Virus record (IMG/VR): IMGVR_UViG_2718217859_000004
Location: 1-38,838 of that record
DNA: 38,838 nt
Source: a virus
Lineage: Duplodnaviria > Heunggongvirae > Uroviricota > Caudoviricetes
Direction: 5' to 3' (one strand)
A program made the position numbers and the translations under genes. The notes beneath the pieces were generated by a model. That model saw nothing but the letters and a program-made list of their open reading frames with translations. It ran no database searches and was not told where the DNA came from. How positions within the stretch are numbered: the first letter of the stretch is position 1; the number at the start of each line of letters is the position of its first letter. Shown in pieces: positions 196 to 20,578 of the stretch.

Positions 196-1047
196 TCAAC
201 GAGTGAATTTAAGTAACTGCTCTACGGTCATATTTTTAATTGCGCCCGGATTTACAAGAGTCCATCCCTGTTTTTCCAGATAAAAGCGGAAGGTATCCAG
301 GGTGCAGACCATTGCGCCGTCAGGAACGGTTTCAGTGAATTCGACATTGCCGAATTTGTCGAAGTGAACAACCAGAGTGCGTCCATCACCCGGAATAATT
401 TTGTCAGCGGGTGGGGTATTATTCTGACGCAGCTCTGCCTCCATGCGGTCGAACTCAGCGATGTAGGCCTCTTTGAATGCGGCGGCTTTTTTGCCGGTGA
501 AGCCCATTACCAGGAAAACGAAGCCGTTTTTTGTGATCTGATATGCGTTATAGGTATTGCCACGGTGCTCAAATTTAACCCGCGAAAAGTTGCTGGTTAA
601 AAAGCGTTCAGAACATTCGAGGGATTCTATTTTTTGAACAACGTGGTGATGTTGCTTGCCAAAGAATTCTGCGATCGCAATAGACGTAGTGACAGCGCGA
701 CCGTTTTCGATGGTTACATCAGGGTGAGAAAGGGTAGGGATAGTAGCCATGATGGCAGCCTCGATAGTCAGTTTAAATAACTCACCACCAAGGTTTTCCA
801 CGACCATAAGGGTGGTGAGACGTACAGGGGTGGAAATACCGGCGACTACCGAAACCGGCCAGCCTTGCGGCTGCCCTGCACGCCCCACCATAATCTGAAT
901 GTGGCTGTGCATTACGCATAAAAAAACCGCCTGAGCGCGGTTATGCGCGGTAATCATCATCGGGTTTCCACGCCCGGCACCCGTTTTATGAGGTGCAGGT
1001 GCACTATAATTCCACCCGTTCTGGTTTTCAATAGCTACATTCAACAT
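196..1047 (-). CDS. Rha-family phage regulatory protein / antirepressor-like
   Basis: 283-aa ORF; residues ~115-200 (VTTSIAIAEFFGKQHHHVVQKIESLECSERFL...) resemble the Rha domain. 99 stop-free codons upstream of the domain argue for the long form; an alternative start is M100 at 748-750 (GAGG upstream). Confidence 0.6.
   Translation of the reverse strand: MLNVAIENQNGWNYSAPAPHKTGAGRGNPMMITAHNRAQAVFLCVMHSHIQIMVGRAGQPQGWPVSVVAGISTPVRLTTLMVVENLGGELFKLTIEAAIMATIPTLSHPDVTIENGRAVTTSIAIAEFFGKQHHHVVQKIESLECSERFLTSNFSRVKFEHRGNTYNAYQITKNGFVFLVMGFTGKKAAAFKEAYIAEFDRMEAELRQNNTPPADKIIPGDGRTLVVHFDKFGNVEFTETVPDGAMVCTLDTFRFYLEKQGWTLVNPGAIKNMTVEQLLKFTR
918..942 (-). terminator. Intrinsic-terminator-like hairpin inside the N-terminal part of the Rha-family ORF
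   Basis: Minus strand reads AACCGC-GCTCAG-GCGGTT followed by TTTTTTT (6-bp stem, 6-nt loop, U7). Confidence 0.35.
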
Positions 1048-5578: not shown

Positions 5579-6334
5579 ATGGAGACTGTTTTTGACGCAC
5601 TGAAAGCGATGGGAAAAGCCACGTCGGTAGAGCTGGCTGCGCGACTTGATGTCAGTCGTGAAGAAGTGCTGAACGAGCTGTGGGAACTCAAAAGAAATGG
5701 CGTCGTTGATAAAACTGGTCACACCTGGTTTCTGGCTGGCGAAGGTGAATCCTGGGTAACCGAAGAGCGGCCAGTAAAATCTGAAGCACAGGATATGCTG
5801 ACCGGGGAGGTCGAACAAAAAGTTACCGCAGACATGATGATTGAGTTTATCGGTCAGGAGGGGGCTAAAACGTGTGAGGAGCTGGCGAGTAAGTTCGGTG
5901 TCAGTACTCGCAAGGTTGCTTCCACGCTGGCGGTGGTAACCGCAACGGGGCGGCTGGCACGCGTTAATCAGAACGGTAAATTTCGTTACTGCATGCCGGG
6001 CGATAAGTTACCAGCAGAGCCGAAATCCGTGCCGGTAACGGAAAATGATGGTAAAGCCTTTCCTCAGCCAGCAGGTGTTGCGTTACCAGTACAGGAGGCT
6101 GCAACACAGGAAGATATTAAAACAGAAACTGTGGCTGATATGGTGCAATCGTTGCCATCGTTTACTGAAACGCGAGCGGATGACCTGGTTTTACCATCGC
6201 TGCATATGGCAAACCGCGAATTGCGTCGGGCGAAAAGTCATGTCCAGAAGTGGGAGCGAGTCTGCGCCGCGCTGCGGGAGCTGAACAAGCACCGGGATAT
6301 GGTTGCCGGGATTTGTCGGAAGTCCGGGCAATGA
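5579..6334 (+). CDS. Hypothetical prophage protein with N-terminal winged-helix-like region (DUF1627-like)
   Basis: GGGAGGG RBS; METVFDALKAMGKATSVELAARLDVSREEVLNELWELKRNGVVDKTG... Confidence 0.55.
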   Translation: METVFDALKAMGKATSVELAARLDVSREEVLNELWELKRNGVVDKTGHTWFLAGEGESWVTEERPVKSEAQDMLTGEVEQKVTADMMIEFIGQEGAKTCEELASKFGVSTRKVASTLAVVTATGRLARVNQNGKFRYCMPGDKLPAEPKSVPVTENDGKAFPQPAGVALPVQEAATQEDIKTETVADMVQSLPSFTETRADDLVLPSLHMANRELRRAKSHVQKWERVCAALRELNKHRDMVAGICRKSGQ

Positions 6335-7987: not shown

Positions 7988-8234
7988 CCGGATGCCGCGC
8001 CAGCGGCATGTAGGGGCAGCTCACAAAACGGAAAAAATTGTACGCTAAGCATCGCCTATGGGAATTCCCATATCGGGCGAAAACGGTTTGCTGTAACGGC
8101 AGAGTTAAGTAGAATTGCTGCGGGTGCTTGAGGCTATCTGCCTCGGGCATGAACACCAACGGCAGATAGAGAAAAGCCCCAGTTAACATTACGCGTCCTG
8201 CAAGACGCTTAACATTAATCTGAGGCCATATCTA

Positions 8235-8438
8235 TGCGACACATAGAGATTAGCCTCTTACGGACCGAAAGGTCAAGGAGAAGCAGGCTATGAAGCAGCA
8301 AAAGGCGATGCTAATCGCCCTGATCGTCATCTGTTTAACCGTCTTAGTGACGGCACTGGTAACGAGGAAAGACCTCTGCGAGGTACGAATCCGAACCGGC
8401 CAGACGGAGGTCGCTGTCTTCACAGCTTACGAACCTGA
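8235..8438 (+). CDS. mok-like overlapping reading frame (67 codons) of the hok locus
   Basis: ATG at 8235; ORF overlaps hok in another frame and ends 7 nt before the hok stop, as mok does in hok/sok loci. Confidence 0.4.
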
Positions 8439-10328: not shown

Positions 10329-10694
10329 ATGACTGAACGCATAGAATTTGTTTTGCCTTACCCGCCGACGGTGAATACCTACTGGCGACGTCATGGCAAT
10401 ACGTATTTCATCTCGGAAGCCGGAAAGCGTTATCGCCGTGATGTGGCGCTAATTGTTCGCCAGCAGCGGCTGAAATTAAATCTGTCCGGAAGGCTGGCGA
10501 TAAAGGTTATCGCAGAGCCGCCGGATAAGCGCCGTCGTGATCTGGACAATATTCTGAAAGCACCGCTGGATGCGCTGACGCATGCGGGGCTTCTCATAGA
10601 CGACGAGCAGTTTGATGAAATCAATATTGTGCGCGGTCTGCCTGTTCCTGGTGGGCGGCTGGGCGTGAAGATTTACAAAATTGAAAGTGAGTGA
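10329..10694 (+). CDS. rusA: RusA-family Holliday junction resolvase
   Basis: FVLPYPPTVNTYWRRHG...RRRDLDNILKAPLDALTHAGLLIDDEQ matches RusA catalytic motifs (PPS.N, RRRDLDN, D.L). Confidence 0.85.
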   Translation: MTERIEFVLPYPPTVNTYWRRHGNTYFISEAGKRYRRDVALIVRQQRLKLNLSGRLAIKVIAEPPDKRRRDLDNILKAPLDALTHAGLLIDDEQFDEINIVRGLPVPGGRLGVKIYKIESE

Positions 10695-10702
10695 GCGTAA
10701 AT

Positions 10703-11239
10703 ATGATATACCCGGAAATTACAGGCAAAAGCGGTGAGCATTTACGCCTGAAAACGCTGGAAAGTGTCTGGCTCCAGGGGAAACTGCGTATGTGGGGGCG
10801 TTGGTCGTATATAGGTGGTGGCAAAACAGGAAATATGTTCAATCAGTTGCTGGCATCCAAAAAACTGACAAAAACCGCGATCAATGAAGCCATGCGCAAA
10901 ATCAGGGAATCAGGGATTGATAAACCTGAACTGGAAGCATTCTTGCGTGAGATGATCGAAGGAAAGCAAAAAAGCTGGTTAACTCACTGCACTGATGCAG
11001 AGGCACTAAAAATTGATAGTGTTATAGGTGAAGTTCTGGCGGATCATCCAGGACTACTAAATGTCCTGAGTCAGCGTTATGTGGGGCGAGGGATGAGTAA
11101 GAGAAGGATGGCCGAGTTATTAAACGAACAGTACCCAGAGTGGGCGTTGATTACATGCCGACGTCGTGTTGATCAGTGGTTGCGTGTTGCTGAGTTCATT
11201 TTGTACTCACCTATGAGAGAAGCGTTCGATTATACTTAA
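10703..11239 (+). CDS. Late-gene antiterminator, Q-like (assignment tentative)
   Basis: Position after RusA; LRMWGRWSY resembles the ERWGAW motif of Q-family proteins; followed ~100 nt downstream by an intrinsic terminator (tR'-like). Alt. GTG start 10691. Confidence 0.55.
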   Translation: MIYPEITGKSGEHLRLKTLESVWLQGKLRMWGRWSYIGGGKTGNMFNQLLASKKLTKTAINEAMRKIRESGIDKPELEAFLREMIEGKQKSWLTHCTDAEALKIDSVIGEVLADHPGLLNVLSQRYVGRGMSKRRMAELLNEQYPEWALITCRRRVDQWLRVAEFILYSPMREAFDYT

Positions 11240-11333
11240 AAAATCATTGCAAAATGAGCCACAAACTGCTTCAATTCCGGTACGCTTCGCATAGCTGTAT
11301 CGCGAGGCGAATCAAGCGCATGAACTTTGATAC

Positions 11334-11357
11334 AACCCGCCATTGAGCGGGTTTTTT
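11334..11357 (+). terminator. Intrinsic terminator ~95 nt downstream of the Q-like gene (tR'-like)
   Basis: ACCCGC-cattga-GCGGGT followed by TTTTTT. Confidence 0.6.
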
Positions 11358-11479
11358 ATGTCCGAAAAACGGCAGAGAACATAAAACGTGCTGGTGGTTG
11401 CGAATACTGGTCTTTCGGCTTGTATTTTTGTAAATCGATATATACTTATCTTGTGACCAGTAATGTCAGGGCAATTGAT

Positions 11480-12223
11480 ATGAATGAAGCCTGTTCTGTT
11501 GTTTTTGTTCATTCCCCGTTTGTTGTGCTCTTTGAAGGAAAAGAGCTCTCTCTTGAAAGTGGTAGTGCACTTCTTGTCAGGGGGGGAGCTGGATCGTTAT
11601 TGCCCTTTTCGGAATGTTTTCGGCGAATAAGTCTCAGTGAATCGACAATTAGCCGTTACCTGTTGTGTGGAGACGAAAAACAGGATGTAGTTTTAGTCCG
11701 GCAAATACCACGATATCTTTGCGTGAGTTTTCCCAAGGCAGAATTGATGGGCATCCTGATTGATTATCTTTGTGAGGAAAAGATTCATACGGACAATTTA
11801 GCGGAAATGCTTTCCTTTTCGTGTCTGGCGTTTTTCTCATCAGAGAAAATGTTTTCGTCGTTTCTGACCGCGTGTATTAGCAATATTAGTGACAGGCTTA
11901 GTGCATTGTTTCGTACGGACATTGCAGCAAACTGGACTCTGAGAGATGTGTCTTCGCGGTTATGTATCAGTGAAAGTTTGTTAAAAAAAAGACTGAAAGA
12001 AGAAGGCACCTGTTTCAGTGAGTTGTTGCTTACAGAGAGAATGAGAATGGCAGCAATGCTGTTGAATCAATCTCGTTGCGCCATCAACAGAATCGCTGCC
12101 CAGTGCGGCTATAATTTTACATCTTATTTTATCAGCGTATTCAGGAGTTATTTTGGTGTTACACCGGCAGGTTACAGGATGGCTGCATTCAATGAGATGA
12201 GTTTAAGTGTTACTCAAGAATAA
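11480..12223 (+). CDS. AraC-family transcriptional regulator, AppY-like (cargo gene)
   Basis: C-terminal AraC HTH (LKKRLKEEGTCFSELLLTERMRMAAMLLNQSRCAINRIAAQCGYNFTSYFISVFRSYFGVTPAGY) and N-terminus EACSVVFVHSPF resemble AppY/EnvY-type regulators; AT-rich gene. Confidence 0.8.
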   Translation: MNEACSVVFVHSPFVVLFEGKELSLESGSALLVRGGAGSLLPFSECFRRISLSESTISRYLLCGDEKQDVVLVRQIPRYLCVSFPKAELMGILIDYLCEEKIHTDNLAEMLSFSCLAFFSSEKMFSSFLTACISNISDRLSALFRTDIAANWTLRDVSSRLCISESLLKKRLKEEGTCFSELLLTERMRMAAMLLNQSRCAINRIAAQCGYNFTSYFISVFRSYFGVTPAGYRMAAFNEMSLSVTQE

Positions 12224-12247
12224 TTGAATTTTGCACTCATTGAAAAC

Positions 12248-12271
12248 AGGCTCGCTGCGGCGGGCCTTTTT
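12248..12271 (+). terminator. Intrinsic terminator after the AppY-like gene
   Basis: AGGCTCGC-tgcg-GCGGGCCT (one G-U pair) followed by TTTTT. Confidence 0.55.
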
Positions 12272-12408
12272 CATATCCGCGCCACGCCCGGCGCATATCA
12301 AAAACCACAGAGCCTTTCAGGGGTGAGCTTACGGGATGGTCAGTGTGACTTTCTCTGTGGGCTGGTCACCCCCGGGCGCAGGCTCACCCACTAAAAGGAA
12401 AAGTCACG

Positions 12409-12834
12409 ATGTTTGGTATTTTCAAAAAGAAAACCCGCAAGGCCATTACTGAAGTGAAGAAGATGGAGAATCGCGATGCAGTGGAGGCGACCGTCTGGGG
12501 CGCGTATTCCATTGCATATGCTGACGGCACCTGTGACGCGAAAGAAATCGCGGTACTGGAGAAAACCATTGCAGCACTTCCTGCCTTTGCGCTGTTCTCG
12601 GGTGAGATTGCACAAATGAGTGCAAATATCCGCGCCCGTTATGAAGCATCGCCGCGTTCTGCCAATGCCGAAGCCCTCCGCCAGCTGGCTGATGTTGCCG
12701 GTACTGATGACGCTGTTAATGTGCTGTGCCTGTGTCTGGATATCGCTGACCAGGATGGTATTGGTCCGGATGAAGAAGCACAGCTCAAGAAAATTGCTCA
12801 GGCACTGCAGTTACCACTGGAGCAGTACCTGTGA
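12409..12834 (+). CDS. TerB-like (tellurite-resistance TerB domain) protein
   Basis: 141 aa, two DG-x-E-containing helices (YADGTCDAKEIAVLEKTIAAL; DQDGIGPDEEAQLKKIAQAL) typical of the TerB fold; AAGGA RBS. Confidence 0.55.
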   Translation: MFGIFKKKTRKAITEVKKMENRDAVEATVWGAYSIAYADGTCDAKEIAVLEKTIAALPAFALFSGEIAQMSANIRARYEASPRSANAEALRQLADVAGTDDAVNVLCLCLDIADQDGIGPDEEAQLKKIAQALQLPLEQYL

Positions 12835-12989
12835 AAAGTGCGCGTCTTGTGCTGGCTGCCATCCTGCTGTTTCTGGTAGTGGTGGTGGATTTTACCGGAC
12901 GGCTGATGTCGGTACTGGCAGATGGTGTGCTGGTGGCGATGGCGCTGGTCGTGCTCCGGCCTTTATTCCGGAGCAAAAACAACGGCTGA
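12831..12989 (+). CDS. Small membrane peptide (52 aa, two predicted TM helices), coupled to the TerB-like gene
   Basis: GTG overlapping TerB-like stop (GTGA); VKSARLVLAAILLFLVVVVDFTGRLMSVLADGVLVAMALVVLRPLFRSKNNG; below ORF-track cutoff. Confidence 0.35.
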   Translation: MKSARLVLAAILLFLVVVVDFTGRLMSVLADGVLVAMALVVLRPLFRSKNNG

Positions 12990-12996
12990 TTATTTG

Positions 12997-13025
12997 AGCG
13001 GGCATTTAAAGCCCGCTGCATTTTT
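12997..13025. terminator. Hairpin plus T-run between convergent genes
   Basis: AGCGGGC-atttaaa-GCCCGCT followed by GCATTTTTATT; lies between the + strand TerB/peptide pair and the minus-strand zinc-ribbon gene. Confidence 0.55.
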
Positions 13026-13704
13026 ATTGCTGCTGTTCCTTAATGCGTTCCGGTAGCACAAATGCCACTTCAAGGAACAACCGGAGAAACGCCACAAACT
13101 CTTTTGCCTGCTCATCACTGGCCTCGAGTTCGTGCACGGCTTCATTTCCTTCCATACGGATTCGGTGAGCCCAGTTTCTCATTGATTCCGTCAGTATGCC
13201 GTCCTGCCGTGCCACTTCAATGCGTGACAGCAGATTGCCTTTTTCGTACCCCAGGGCACGGAGGGCAACCTCGAGGACGCTACGGCAGCCAACAATAATA
13301 CGCGGGGCAGTTCTGCCGGACCGAACATCCTCCTGCAACTCAGTGAAGACTGCGCGAATTTTTTCGGGATAGTGGGGGGAGTCATCGGGCAGCCTGAGTT
13401 CAGGATAGATTTTGATGCTCCCCTCAAGTGGAGCATTCAGCACCCAGGCTTTGTTGTTGATGGCTTTTTTCATGTCCACCAGTTCACTGACTGAACATTC
13501 GAATGCGATCATTAATGGGTTGTTGCATTCTGTGCAAAAGTCCGTTGAGTATGCTTTTGCTGATGTTATTTCAGAGGTACGCGGTTGTTGCATGTAAAGC
13601 TTGTTTTCTGTAGCCGGACGCCTGCTGTGGTACTGGGTGACCTCATTCAGAGAAATATGAACCTGATGAAGGCAGTACGGGCATTTAATTTTCAGGGAGT
13701 ACAT
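13024..13704 (-). CDS. Zinc-ribbon protein with DUF4145/HEPN-like C-terminal domain (candidate abortive-infection/defence protein)
   Basis: Start 13702-13704 with GAAGAGG upstream (ORF extends to 13893); N-terminal CPYC...CTEC zinc ribbon; C-terminus IIVGCRSVLEVALRAL...MRNWAHRIRMEGNEAVHELEA with an R-x7-H motif in an all-helical region. Domain call from memory, unverified. Confidence 0.5.
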   Translation of the reverse strand: MYSLKIKCPYCLHQVHISLNEVTQYHSRRPATENKLYMQQPRTSEITSAKAYSTDFCTECNNPLMIAFECSVSELVDMKKAINNKAWVLNAPLEGSIKIYPELRLPDDSPHYPEKIRAVFTELQEDVRSGRTAPRIIVGCRSVLEVALRALGYEKGNLLSRIEVARQDGILTESMRNWAHRIRMEGNEAVHELEASDEQAKEFVAFLRLFLEVAFVLPERIKEQQQ

Positions 13705-13962
13705 ATGACCTCTTCGACAGAAGTGATAACTGAATTTGAAAATTGCATAGCAGATTCTGCCAGTGATTCTGTAGCAGCGATAGAACGAAGGTTTGCTGCT
13801 GCTCAGACCCGGTATGGTCATGATGCAGCCGTCAAGGGGCTGGCAATGGCGTTTGTTATTGCAGAGAACCGCCGTCGCTTTATTGAAGCGCAAATGACAC
13901 TAAAGCAATAAATAGCACCACACAAAAGGCATCTGAGGGTGCCTTTGACGGGGTGTTTTTAT

Positions 13963-13988
13963 GGGCCACTGGAGGCCCTTTTTTATTT
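13963..13988 (+). terminator. Terminator-like hairpin immediately upstream of the holin gene
   Basis: GGGCC-actgga-GGCCC followed by TTTTTTATTT; holin RBS starts 3 nt later. Confidence 0.5.
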
Positions 13989-14002
13989 ACAGGAGAAAAA
14001 GT

Positions 14003-14395
14003 ATGTCTGAACCCTTATCCGGTTCCGGCACGGCTGCGGCGCTCGGCGGGGCGACGGTATTCGGGCTGTTTACCGGAACGGATTTCGGGATTGTGTTTGG
14101 TGCGTTCGCCGGGGCGTTATTTGTGGCAACGATGCCGCAGGCGCTTTCAGCCTGGCGGGTGGCGGCGCATTTTCTGGTGTCGTTCATTGTCGGCGTGCTG
14201 GGAGCGCGTGTGCTGTCTGCCTGGATAGCGGCAAAAACAGGTTATGACGGCACATCGGCAGATGCGCTGTGTGCGGTGCTGGTATCGGTGGTGTCGGTAA
14301 AGATTCTGTCGTTCATCCACCAGCAGGATATCGCATCACTGGTGTCCGGCCTGTTCTCCCGCCTGCGGGGTGGAGGAGGCGGCAATGTTAAGTAA
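14003..14395 (+). CDS. Phage holin (multi-TM)
   Basis: AGGAG RBS; 130 aa with Gly/Ala-rich hydrophobic segments (GGATVFGLFTGTDFGIVFGAFAGALFVA...); first gene of the lysis cassette. Confidence 0.7.
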   Translation: MSEPLSGSGTAAALGGATVFGLFTGTDFGIVFGAFAGALFVATMPQALSAWRVAAHFLVSFIVGVLGARVLSAWIAAKTGYDGTSADALCAVLVSVVSVKILSFIHQQDIASLVSGLFSRLRGGGGGNVK

Positions 14396-14660
14396 CCTTC
14401 CCGGATTGCTGAATGTGGCGTTATGCACGGTTATCGTGCTGACGCTCTTTTTTTATCGTCGCCGTGATTCCAGACATAAACCGCTGATGTCATGGCTGGC
14501 CTGGCTGCTGATGCTGTTGTATGCCTTTGCGCCACTCAGCTACCTGTGTGGTCGTCCGTTAGCGGCGAACTGGCTGGCGGTGGGGCTTAATCTGCTGTTC
14601 TGCGTGCTGGTGATTCGTGCACGTGGGAACGTTTCAAAAATCCTTTCATTACGGAGGTGA
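14385..14660 (+). CDS. Second lysis-associated membrane protein (holin/antiholin-like)
   Basis: ATG 14385 after GGAGGAGG, overlapping holin stop; 91 aa with hydrophobic helices. Confidence 0.55.
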   Translation: MLSNLPGLLNVALCTVIVLTLFFYRRRDSRHKPLMSWLAWLLMLLYAFAPLSYLCGRPLAANWLAVGLNLLFCVLVIRARGNVSKILSLRR

Positions 14661-14662
14661 GT

Positions 14663-15040
14663 ATGTCGGGTAAATTCAGATTCAGCCGTCGGAGCGAGAA
14701 AAATCTGGAGGGCGTAAAACCACAGCTGGTTGCTGTCGTTCGCCGTGCGCTGGAGCTGACGGAGGTTGATTTCGGTATTACGGAAGGTCTGCGCACGAAA
14801 GAGCGCCAGAAACAACTGGTTGCAGAAGGCAAGAGCCAGACCATGAACAGCCGCCACCTGACCGGTGATGCGGTGGATGTTGTTGCCTGGGTTGGCAGCC
14901 AGGTGTCATGGGACTGGCCTCTGTACGAGAAAATCGCGCAGGCATTTAAGCAGGCCGCTACAGAGCTGGGAATCGCCATCGAATGGGGCGGGGACTGGAA
15001 AACGTTGAAGGACGGGCCTCACTTTCAGTTGAAACGATAA
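14663..15040 (+). CDS. Endolysin, peptidase M15 (D-Ala-D-Ala carboxypeptidase-like) family
   Basis: GGAGG 5 nt upstream; ...LVAEGKSQTMNSRHLTGDAVDVVAW...EWGGDW...DGPHFQL with zinc-ligand-like H/D/H residues typical of M15 endolysins. Confidence 0.8.
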   Translation: MSGKFRFSRRSEKNLEGVKPQLVAVVRRALELTEVDFGITEGLRTKERQKQLVAEGKSQTMNSRHLTGDAVDVVAWVGSQVSWDWPLYEKIAQAFKQAATELGIAIEWGGDWKTLKDGPHFQLKR

Positions 15041-19010: not shown

Positions 19011-20578
19011 ATGTGGAGTTGATAGATGTTCACGGACAGCCCCTGCGACAGAGTATGGGATATTCCGGTGGCGGCTCCGGATTTGGTGGGCAGCTTGCGG
19101 AATGGCTGCCTGCACCGGAAAGTGCCGATGTGGCGCTGTTGCCTTCCATTCAGCTGGGTAATGCCCGTGCGGATGATCTGGTCCGTAATAATGGCATTGC
19201 CGCGAATGCTGTGGAAATCCATAAAGACCATATCGTCGGACATATGTTTCGCCTGAGCTACCGACCCAACTGGCGCTGGCTGGGGATGTCAGAAGCTGAT
19301 TCGCATGCCTTTATTGAAGATGTGGAGGCGGCGTGGATGGAATACTGCGATCCGGTGTTTGGCTCGATGGATGTGGAAGGACGTCGCTCGTTTACCGAAT
19401 TTATTCGTGAAGGGGTGGGGGTCCATACTTTTAACGGTGAAATTTTTGTCCAGCCTGTATGGGATGCGGAATCCACGTCATTATTCAGAACAAAATTCAA
19501 GACCATCAGTCCGAAGCGCGTCAGTACGCCCGGTTATGGCATCGGCGATCGTTTTATGCGTGCCGGAGTGGAAATCAGCCGGCACGGAAAGGCGATAGCC
19601 TACCATGTTCAGGATGATGACTGGCCGGGTTACAGTGTCAGTAACTGGACACGGATTACGGCGACTCTGCCCTCCGGAAGACCGGGCATGATCCATGTGT
19701 TTCAGCCGCAGGAGGACGGGCAGACGCGCGGGGCAAACCAGTTTTACTCTGTCATGGAGCGCCTCAAGATGCTCGACACACTGCAGGCCACGCAACTGCA
19801 GTCGGCGATGGTGCGGGCGATGTATGCCGCGACGATTGAATCCACACTGGATTCGGAAAAAGCATTTGAATATATCGCCGGGGTGGGGGATGACAGTAAA
19901 AACCCGCTGAAAGCCATCATGAAAGGCTATGCGCACTATTACGCCATCAATGGGGTAAAGATGGGAGGGGTTCGTATTCCGCATCTTTATCCGGGGGATT
20001 CACTGAATCTGCAGACGGCACAGAATGCGGATAATGGGTTCTCTGAACTGGAAAAGGCGCTGTTACGCTACATCGCAGCCGGACTGGGCGTGTCCTATGA
20101 ACAGCTTTCCCGTGATTATTCACAGGTCAGTTATTCCAGTGCCAGGGCATCCGCCAATGAGTCGTGGCGGTATTTTATGGGGAAACGAAAATTTGTGGCC
20201 AGCCGTCTGGCGTCACAGATGTTTGCCTGCTGGCTGGAAGAAGCCCTTATTCGTGGTGTGATCCGCCCACCGAAATCCCGTTTCTCATTCTGGGAGGCCC
20301 GTTCCGGGTGGTGCCGTGCCGAGTGGATTGGTGCCGGTCGCATGGCGATTGATGGCCTTAAGGAAGTGCAGGAAGCGGTGATGCGTATTGAAGGTGGTTT
20401 AAGCACGTACGAGAAAGAACTGGCCCTGATGGGCGATGACTATCAGGAGATTTTCCGCCAGCAACTGCGTGAAAGCCAGGAGCGACAGGCGGCTGGTCTT
20501 CCCCGCCCCATCTGGATAAAGGACACGTTTCAGCAGCAGATCCGACAGACAACGGGAGAGAAAGGCGATGCGTCGTAA
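19007..20578 (+). CDS. Portal protein, lambda gpB-like
   Basis: GTG overlapping W stop; SGGGSGFGGQL...GNARADDLVRNNG...RGANQFYSVMERLKMLDTLQATQLQSAMVRAMYAATIES aligns with lambda B. Confidence 0.9.
   Translation: MNVELIDVHGQPLRQSMGYSGGGSGFGGQLAEWLPAPESADVALLPSIQLGNARADDLVRNNGIAANAVEIHKDHIVGHMFRLSYRPNWRWLGMSEADSHAFIEDVEAAWMEYCDPVFGSMDVEGRRSFTEFIREGVGVHTFNGEIFVQPVWDAESTSLFRTKFKTISPKRVSTPGYGIGDRFMRAGVEISRHGKAIAYHVQDDDWPGYSVSNWTRITATLPSGRPGMIHVFQPQEDGQTRGANQFYSVMERLKMLDTLQATQLQSAMVRAMYAATIESTLDSEKAFEYIAGVGDDSKNPLKAIMKGYAHYYAINGVKMGGVRIPHLYPGDSLNLQTAQNADNGFSELEKALLRYIAAGLGVSYEQLSRDYSQVSYSSARASANESWRYFMGKRKFVASRLASQMFACWLEEALIRGVIRPPKSRFSFWEARSGWCRAEWIGAGRMAIDGLKEVQEAVMRIEGGLSTYEKELALMGDDYQEIFRQQLRESQERQAAGLPRPIWIKDTFQQQIRQTTGEKGDAS

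Follow-up and report, generated by a model that had tools for sequence, protein, structure and literature searches.

A putative RAZR-like zinc-ribbon HEPN ribonuclease gene and its conserved head-to-head partner in a mobile prophage cassette

The 38,838-nucleotide Caudoviricetes sequence analyzed here (IMG/VR record IMGVR_UViG_2718217859_000004, positions 1 to 38,838; hereafter the window) represents a lambdoid prophage whose head genes are lambda-type and whose tail is P2-type. Its minus strand carries a gene that probably encodes a RAZR-like zinc-ribbon HEPN ribonuclease, which would serve as combined sensor and effector in abortive infection or superinfection exclusion. As judged from sequence comparison, the protein has the architecture and the catalytic machinery of RAZR (ring-activated zinc-finger RNase), but it belongs to a distinct and distant clade. 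Together with a hairpin and a divergent 68-aa ORF, the gene forms a two-gene moron cassette of 945 bp (12966-13910), which was delimited by comparison with an empty site. A defence or abortive-infection role had been proposed in a preliminary description of this DNA, and the proposal gains support from the architecture that the protein appears to share with RAZR/PD-T7-4, a validated abortive-infection RNase (PMC9519451, PMC13017515).

Gene model of the zinc-ribbon HEPN gene

The HEPN gene occupies positions 13024-13704 of the minus strand (ATG at 13704-13702, TAA at 13026-13024) and encodes 226 aa. The CPYC...CTEC knuckles and the R-x7-H motif listed for this ORF in the preliminary description are present as described. 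The N-terminus reads MYSLKIKCPYC, with C8 and C11 in the CPYC knuckle; C57 and C60 belong to the CTEC knuckle (residues 57-60), and R183 and H191 delimit the R-x7-H motif RMEGNEAVH (residues 183-191). The 226-aa start is taken to be correct because the four cysteines, R183 and H191 are all invariant among 56 family members of 24-73% identity. An alternative TTG start would give a protein of 289 aa; all homologues begin at an M-[YF]-[ST] sequence matching position 13704. In the case of E. coli 08-00022 (NZ_CP013662.1), which is 100% identical to the window, the RefSeq model comprises only 163 aa starting at MIAFECS and omits the zinc ribbon, while the copy in strain A34 is annotated at full length. 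By the conservation of its sequence, the long form is the real one, and the truncated RefSeq gene model is corrected here. The family is large, with 2445 cluster representatives at E<=1e-3 and 103 at E<=1e-30 among the 1.84 billion representatives scanned.

Domain architecture and predicted fold

The protein is composed of an N-terminal zinc-ribbon domain, an interdomain linker and a C-terminal DUF4145/HEPN domain. The zinc-ribbon domain (residues 1-71; 13492-13704, minus strand) contains two CxxC knuckles, encoded at 13672-13683 (C8/C11) and 13525-13536 (C57/C60) on the minus strand, whose four cysteines are invariant in both alignments of the family, a close one (A1) and a broader one of 56 sequences (A2). 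The linker, defined from alignment A1, spans residues 98-113 (IYPELRLPDDSPHYPE; 13366-13413, minus strand) and includes a PDDSP..P motif that is invariant among close homologues in that alignment. The DUF4145/HEPN domain (residues 114-226; 13027-13365, minus strand) harbors a conserved arginine, R141 (13282-13284), and the predicted catalytic residues R183 (13156-13158) and H191 (13132-13134), all on the minus strand. A DUF4145/HEPN-like C-terminus had been suggested from the sequence, and the profile search bears this out: Pfam DUF4145 (PF13643; HEPN clan CL0291) scores 44.2 bits on residues 137-206 (E=2.1e-11), where the gathering cut-off is 23.1. The assignment of DUF4145 to the HEPN superfamily, with zinc-ribbon fusions already included, was made by Anantharaman et al. 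2013 (PMC3710099).

The AlphaFold2 model (pLDDT 76.5) consists of two beta-hairpins bearing the CxxC knuckles, a helix, the linker and a helical C-terminal domain, with zinc-ribbon strands at residues 3-7, 14-18, 48-56 and 63-71. The C-terminal domain is all-alpha, as in the HEPN fold, and a Foldseek search of PDB structures with the model of the HEPN protein returned nothing significant. Identity to the window protein is unevenly distributed along the chain, at 0.40 in the zinc-ribbon domain versus 0.72 in the HEPN domain; the zinc ribbon is thus the most variable part, and we regard it as the putative trigger sensor.

Homology to RAZR

PD-T7-4 was recovered by functional selection in E. coli and recorded as 'Zn finger-HEPN' (PMC9519451, supplementary tables); in 2026 it was renamed RAZR (PMC13017515). 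In RAZR, a Cys4 zinc-ribbon domain (ZFD) at the N-terminus is joined through a conserved linker to a C-terminal DUF4145/HEPN domain, whose catalytic residues are R146 and H154. RAZR constitutes an abortive-infection system that is non-toxic alone, even when over-produced, and is activated as 24 copies assemble on phage rings, namely the portal of T7/T3 or Gp77, an Erf-like protein of SECphi27; the active enzyme cuts single-stranded RNA non-specifically. The ZFD varies more than any other part of RAZR and determines its specificity (all PMC13017515). RAZR/PD-T7-4 is a protein of E. coli UMB1727 (RRL46918.1; PDB 9Y9C, 9Y6U; Vassallo 2022, PMC9519451; Zhang 2026, PMC13017515), and RAZR-family sequences such as P0179 were obtained from the PDB alignment followed by homology search.

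The relationship is distant, and among the profile searches against PDB sequences it was reached only with the broader 56-sequence profile A2, not with A1. This profile matched RAZR chain 9y9c_OA with E=4.7e-8, aligning profile positions 93-219 with RAZR residues 64-192. Profile-to-profile alignment of the two families with hhalign gave 97.6% probability and E=3.5e-12 over 119 columns, and direct BLASTP of the window protein against RAZR gave 25% identity over 101 aa (E=0.004). The PADLOC HMM for PD-T7-4 (PDLC04109) matches the window protein weakly (18.7 bits, E=2.3e-4) and only across the linker and HEPN domain (residues 98-225), while in the family as a whole it matches 44 of the 56 members, with a best E-value of 6.8e-10. 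Neither phmmer with the HEPN protein nor hmmsearch with the close-family profile A1 found a relevant match among PDB sequences, and the window protein also escapes detection by an HMM made from 27 close RAZR sequences.

Within the aligned region, the correspondence extends to the predicted active site. The profile alignment to 9y9c and the hhalign comparison both pair R183 with the catalytic R146 of RAZR and H191 with the catalytic H154, which fits the R/H motif noted in the preliminary description, and the R-x2-GN-x3-H motif is common to both proteins residue for residue. R141 corresponds to the conserved R105 of RAZR and P218 to P185, while P110..P113 of the linker correspond to P76..P79; both linkers are proline-rich and conserved, and the C-terminal part of the window linker aligns with NPDMP of the RAZR linker in hhalign. 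Other positions set the clade apart. W178, invariant in the window family, is clade-specific and is replaced by alanine in RAZR. The inter-dimer residues D179, D180 and R184 of RAZR correspond to E212, V213 and L217, with an acidic side chain kept only at the first position, so that ring-type oligomerization is not assured in the window protein.

Both proteins begin with a Cys4 zinc ribbon whose first knuckle is CP[HY]C, and in both families this domain is the most variable. The knuckles are separated by 30 residues in RAZR versus 46 in the window protein, which has a longer zinc ribbon with an extra helix. The two zinc-ribbon domains remain unaligned in hhalign, and detectable homology is confined to the linker and HEPN domain; only in some relatives with a short ZFD does alignment to the PD-T7-4 HMM set in at the first knuckle. 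Both proteins are about 220 aa long and are carried on mobile elements.

A conserved partner gene in head-to-head orientation

The HEPN gene had initially been described as a candidate standalone effector, a reading that cannot be kept, since an ORF left unlisted in that description accompanies it. This partner ORF (68 aa; 13705-13911, plus strand) diverges from the HEPN gene and is co-directional with the phage late operon. The two start codons abut (CAT-ATG, 13702-13707), and the first codons of either gene contain the Shine-Dalgarno sequence of its counterpart; AAGAGG is that of the HEPN gene, GGGAG that of the 68-aa ORF. With the partner scored at HMM E<1e-5, it was detected in 23 of the 27 records holding the HEPN gene, corresponding to 14 of 17 distinct sequence types, window included; at each of these 23 loci, which represent 14 distinct gene pairs and include the window, the two start codons are -2 to +2 nt apart. 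Head-to-head homologues occur in E. coli A34 and in Salmonella lambdoid, Trabulsiella, Budvicia, Pantoea and Paraburkholderia Mu-like prophages. The two genes are present in exactly the same six of 5426 complete E. coli genomes, and their divergence runs in parallel, with identities to the window copies (HEPN/partner) falling in step from 96/96 through 74/69, 68/60, 61/51, 51/58 and 47/41 to 46/40%. Pairwise differences among partner sequences amount to 0.37, 0.28 and 0.63 at codon positions 1, 2 and 3, respectively, and this concentration at third positions argues that the partner is protein-coding. On these sequence grounds, the 68-aa ORF is a real gene and a conserved companion of the HEPN gene.

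The AlphaFold2 model of the partner is a three-helix bundle (pLDDT 87.7) with an arginine-rich C-terminus containing an AENRRR motif. Searches of Pfam, PHROGs, PADLOC and NCBIfam gave no match to it, nor did a fold search indicate a function, and only five protein clusters match it in a collection of 5.8 billion proteins, all of them named hypothetical. A similar layout extends to distant relatives of the HEPN gene: three of them (L025, L026 and L031; 33-36% identity) and the gp20/gp21 module of Stx phage POCJ13 have a divergent ORF of 62-81 aa with a 2-nt start overlap. These ORFs share only the geometry with the window partner, the sequence match being marginal for the first three (6-10 bits) and absent for POCJ13 gp21. 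Two other distant relatives have no divergent ORF.

The pair is not obligate. One lineage, represented by three contigs (L005, L006 and L014), holds an intact, catalytically complete HEPN gene next to a small ORF that is cut short at 32 aa, and in some Stx phages the HEPN gene is absent and all that is kept of the POCJ13-type module is its positionally equivalent small ORF. These exceptions bear on the possibility that the two genes form a toxin-antitoxin addiction module, in which the HEPN protein would be an RNase toxin with constitutive activity, countered by the 68-aa protein as antitoxin, and the module would stabilize the prophage without any phage sensing. We consider such a module unlikely: in addition to the lineages that retain either gene alone, the genes are divergent rather than arranged in an operon, the 68-aa protein is neither an MNT nucleotidyltransferase nor a match to any antitoxin family, and RAZR is non-toxic by itself when over-produced (PMC13017515). 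As an obligate toxin-antitoxin pair, the arrangement is rejected on the first, second and last of these grounds.

Distribution and genomic setting of the cassette

The limits of the cassette were derived from an empty site in the prophage of strain CM2010-0578/1 (L036), where 13 bp replace the 945-bp segment. In BLASTN, the window is homologous to this site at 95% through 12300-12965, and homology resumes at 13911-14450, so that the stop codon of the 68-aa ORF sits at the right-hand junction of the cassette. The cassette is rare, as the six carriers among the complete E. coli genomes indicate, and empty sites are common. All homologues examined reside in prophages or viral contigs, and a search of genome contigs with the A1 profile yielded three loci. 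The flanking genes differ at every distinct locus: the gene pair is flanked by the lysis genes and the terminase gene in Salmonella lambdoid prophages, and by DUF3164 and GemA/Mor in a Paraburkholderia Mu-like prophage. The orientation is retained, with the HEPN gene antisense to its neighbors and the partner running with the surrounding phage genes at every locus with called genes; raw-ORF strand counts place the HEPN gene antisense at nearly all others. The cassette has travelled among the late regions of lambdoid phages and Mu-like prophages, and a distant form with the same geometry occupies the early region of Stx phages.

This mobility also weighs on a reading in which the HEPN protein is a nucleic-acid-binding regulator of the phage that has no role in defence and might, for instance, bind or process RNA or DNA of phage or host to tune lysogeny or lysis, and the two genes are a developmental switch. 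The head-to-head geometry recalls the promoter switches, arranged face to face, of temperate phages, binding to nucleic acids is common among zinc ribbons, and the C-terminus of the 68-aa protein is rich in arginine; moreover, phrog_1305, which matches the HEPN protein over its full length (E=4.6e-24, PHROGs), bears the label 'DNA binding protein', as does POCJ13 gp20 in RefSeq. The PHROG label is non-experimental, however, the catalytic dyad of the HEPN domain is invariant, and the hypervariable zinc ribbon fits a sensor in an arms race better than a housekeeping regulator. The cassette is in addition accessory, being carried by so few genomes in different modules of different phages. A purely regulatory role therefore seems improbable.

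In the window, the HEPN gene is placed between a Q-like antiterminator gene (10691-11239; phrog_753, E=1.4e-75) and the lysis genes, which comprise a holin gene at 14003 and an M15 endolysin gene (14657-15040). The site between antiterminator and lysis genes is a classic moron position. An AraC/YdeO-like regulator is encoded upstream on the plus strand, and two further plus-strand genes there converge with the HEPN gene, one encoding a TerB/TciA-like protein (12409-12834) and the other a DUF3927/TciB-like peptide (12831-12989). Convergence with this pair had been recognized in the preliminary description, and that part stands, whereas a functional link to the pair is rejected: TerB/DUF3927 are found beside the HEPN gene in just two viral contigs of 98% identity and at none of the other distinct loci, and they occur independently, next to the holin gene of many E. 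coli prophages that lack the cassette and in phage P1 as tciA.

The same observations count against the idea that the HEPN gene is an auxiliary part of a restriction-modification (R-M) or TerB/TerD-linked defence and acts with its neighbors, TerB/DUF3927 here and an orphan methyltransferase elsewhere. Fusions of DUF4145 to type I HsdR are frequent, and in occasional cases the domain is linked to TerD systems (PMC3710099); the window protein shows a weak NCBIfam match to the HsdR N-terminus, TerB is adjacent in the window, and an N6_N4 methyltransferase gene adjoins the HEPN gene in L005 and L006 and is found at a distance of about 2.4 kb in L003. The HsdR match, however, reaches only 14.8 bits against a cut-off of 729, the neighbors vary at each distinct locus, no R-M, BREX, helicase or restriction endonuclease gene is found near the window gene, and the annotated 38.8-kb window contains no R-M genes. 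A function as R-M component is rejected on this basis, and an auxiliary role of the broader kind is very improbable.

The inserted segment also contains a hairpin, AGCGGGC-N7-GCCCGCT, at 12997-13017 (either strand), immediately 3' of the HEPN gene, where 34 nt separate the convergent stop codons. The preliminary description took it to be shared with the TerB pair; it is instead part of the inserted cassette. On both strands the hairpin folds with about -15 kcal/mol, z being -2.9 and -3.5, and a U-tract follows it on the plus strand only. From these sequence features, the hairpin is probably the terminator of the HEPN gene and, with the plus-strand U-tract, of the TerB-DUF3927 transcript. At the other end of the gene, scans for a sigma-70 promoter gave nothing convincing; they returned just weak, non-significant elements of the extended -10 type, located 35-56 nt upstream of the ATG. 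Since the only upstream DNA within the cassette is the 68-aa ORF, the promoter of the HEPN gene should lie inside that ORF or in the phage backbone beyond it.

Proposed function

The working model follows from the resemblance to RAZR. In the lysogen, the HEPN protein would be made from its own promoter and would persist as a harmless, inert oligomer. Upon infection by another phage, its variable zinc-ribbon domain may bind a phage protein, which in the case of RAZR is a large ring, either the portal or an Erf-like recombinase. Such binding would position HEPN dimers for non-specific cleavage of single-stranded RNA, and the cleavage would in turn halt translation and abort the infection.

A prophage equipped with a RAZR-like sensor needs to avoid killing itself, because its induction produces its own portal ring; in the window, the portal is encoded at 19055-20578. 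The clade described here offers a concrete candidate solution in its conserved partner, start-to-start antisense layout and 945-bp package. The 5' regions of the two genes are complementary across both ribosome-binding sites, and mutually exclusive expression is predicted for this reason. The 68-aa ORF is presumably read from the phage operon; lytic transcription would then turn the RNase gene off and the 68-aa protein on, and this protein may also neutralize the RNase, so that the prophage's own portal would trigger nothing upon induction. We tentatively suggest that the cassette might be a self-contained two-state immunity switch, in which the RNase guards the lysogen and lytic read-through silences it while producing the 68-aa protein as an anti-RAZR self-immunity factor. 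Such a switch is a feature undescribed for RAZR, and if this reading were true, Stx phages with the lone small ORF would carry a stand-alone counter-defence gene. The clade also enlarges the sequence space of zinc-ribbon sensors available for work on trigger specificity.

Comparison with known systems

HEPN domains occur in several defence systems that differ from the one described here in architecture or gene organization. HEPN-MNT systems (HepT/MntA) have the motif spacing Rx4-6H, as opposed to R-x7-H in the window protein, which additionally contains a zinc-ribbon domain. Their MNT nucleotidyltransferase is encoded in an operon, whereas the window gene is accompanied by a divergent gene for a three-helix protein of 68 aa without a family match. 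Type I R-M HsdR proteins and BxaP, a BREX-associated abortive-infection protein (PMC10799925), share Pfam DUF4145 and a defence context with the window protein, but in these proteins DUF4145 is fused to helicase/nuclease or HEAT-like domains, while here it is C-terminal, behind a zinc ribbon. A closer resemblance is offered by DS-38, an E. coli anti-phage system that the DefensePredictor preprint reports as validated; it has zinc-finger and HEPN domains, and its alignment with PD-T7-4 is confined to the HEPN domain (10.1101/2025.01.08.631726). As described there, this HEPN-only relation matches that of the window family to PD-T7-4; the likeness is one of description.

The type of system is already known from RAZR/PD-T7-4 and possibly from DS-38. 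The 2026 account presents RAZR as one protein that escapes auto-immunity owing to the lack of large ring assemblies in the host (PMC13017515). At its own locus (L028), RAZR has no divergent ORF and is encoded by a single gene, which overlaps an integrase gene running in the same direction. The window gene is instead antisense in a prophage late region and has a conserved head-to-head 68-aa partner; what is new here is this clade-specific cassette with its partner gene.

Gene model of the HEPN gene and its distant relatives

The minus-strand gene for the RAZR-like zinc-ribbon DUF4145/HEPN protein (226 aa, window 13024-13704) is annotated in RefSeq for the source genome as a shorter product, WP_187703274.1, of 163 aa, which starts at MIAFECS, spans window 13024-13512 and lacks the conserved zinc ribbon. 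The four cysteines of this ribbon are invariant across 56 homologues, which supports the 226-aa form. The head-to-head module formed by this gene and the small ORF has a distant counterpart in the Stx-converting phages POCJ13 and 75/02 Stx, and in 36-48 of 5426 E. coli genomes. In the Shigella Stx phage POCJ13 it corresponds to gp20/gp21 (L034, 2008-2926); a second interval concerned is L035, 1801-2058. In these phages and genomes the module lies in the early-right region, downstream of a Ren-like gene, and in about 12 records, such as phiSTEC1589-Stx1c, the small ORF stands alone.

Structured and leader elements

The interval that separates the small ORF from the holin start contains a strongly structured segment (window 13905-13990, +; -32.8 kcal/mol, z -4.3), in which a long hairpin precedes GGGCC-N6-GGCCC and a U-run. 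Prophages without the HEPN/small-ORF cassette have the same segment, so it is part of the phage backbone. It resembles a terminator that would have to be read through by late antitermination. Upstream, a leader of about 170 nt spans the distance between a terminator-like hairpin and the ATG (window 12225-12411, +) and is 83% identical to one in L005, a locus carrying a relative of the HEPN gene (5692-5880, -). The moron genes behind it in these different prophages are unrelated, namely TerB/TciA in the window and an NMT1_3-domain gene in L005, and the leader matched no Rfam family. It may act as a portable promoter/5′UTR for moron expression.

Accessory genes of the prophage

Rfam matches scoring above the gathering score comprise a C4 antisense RNA (window 808-895, -), the Hfq-binding sRNA isrK (920-996, -) and the sok antitoxin RNA adjoining hokD (8122-8292, +). 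The paa adhesin gene lies on the same prophage as an AraC-family regulator gene (11327-12223, +), which follows the Q-like antiterminator and precedes the lysis genes. The regulator is nearest to YdeO/GadX (NCBIfam, 147 bits, under the cut-off) and is possibly a prophage-borne virulence or acid-response regulator. The TerB-family gene and DUF3927 peptide (12409-12989, +; phrog_632, phrog_1470) are a moron in their own right, common across E. coli prophages and plasmids, and the pair resembles tciA/tciB of phage P1, with 79% nucleotide identity to tciA.
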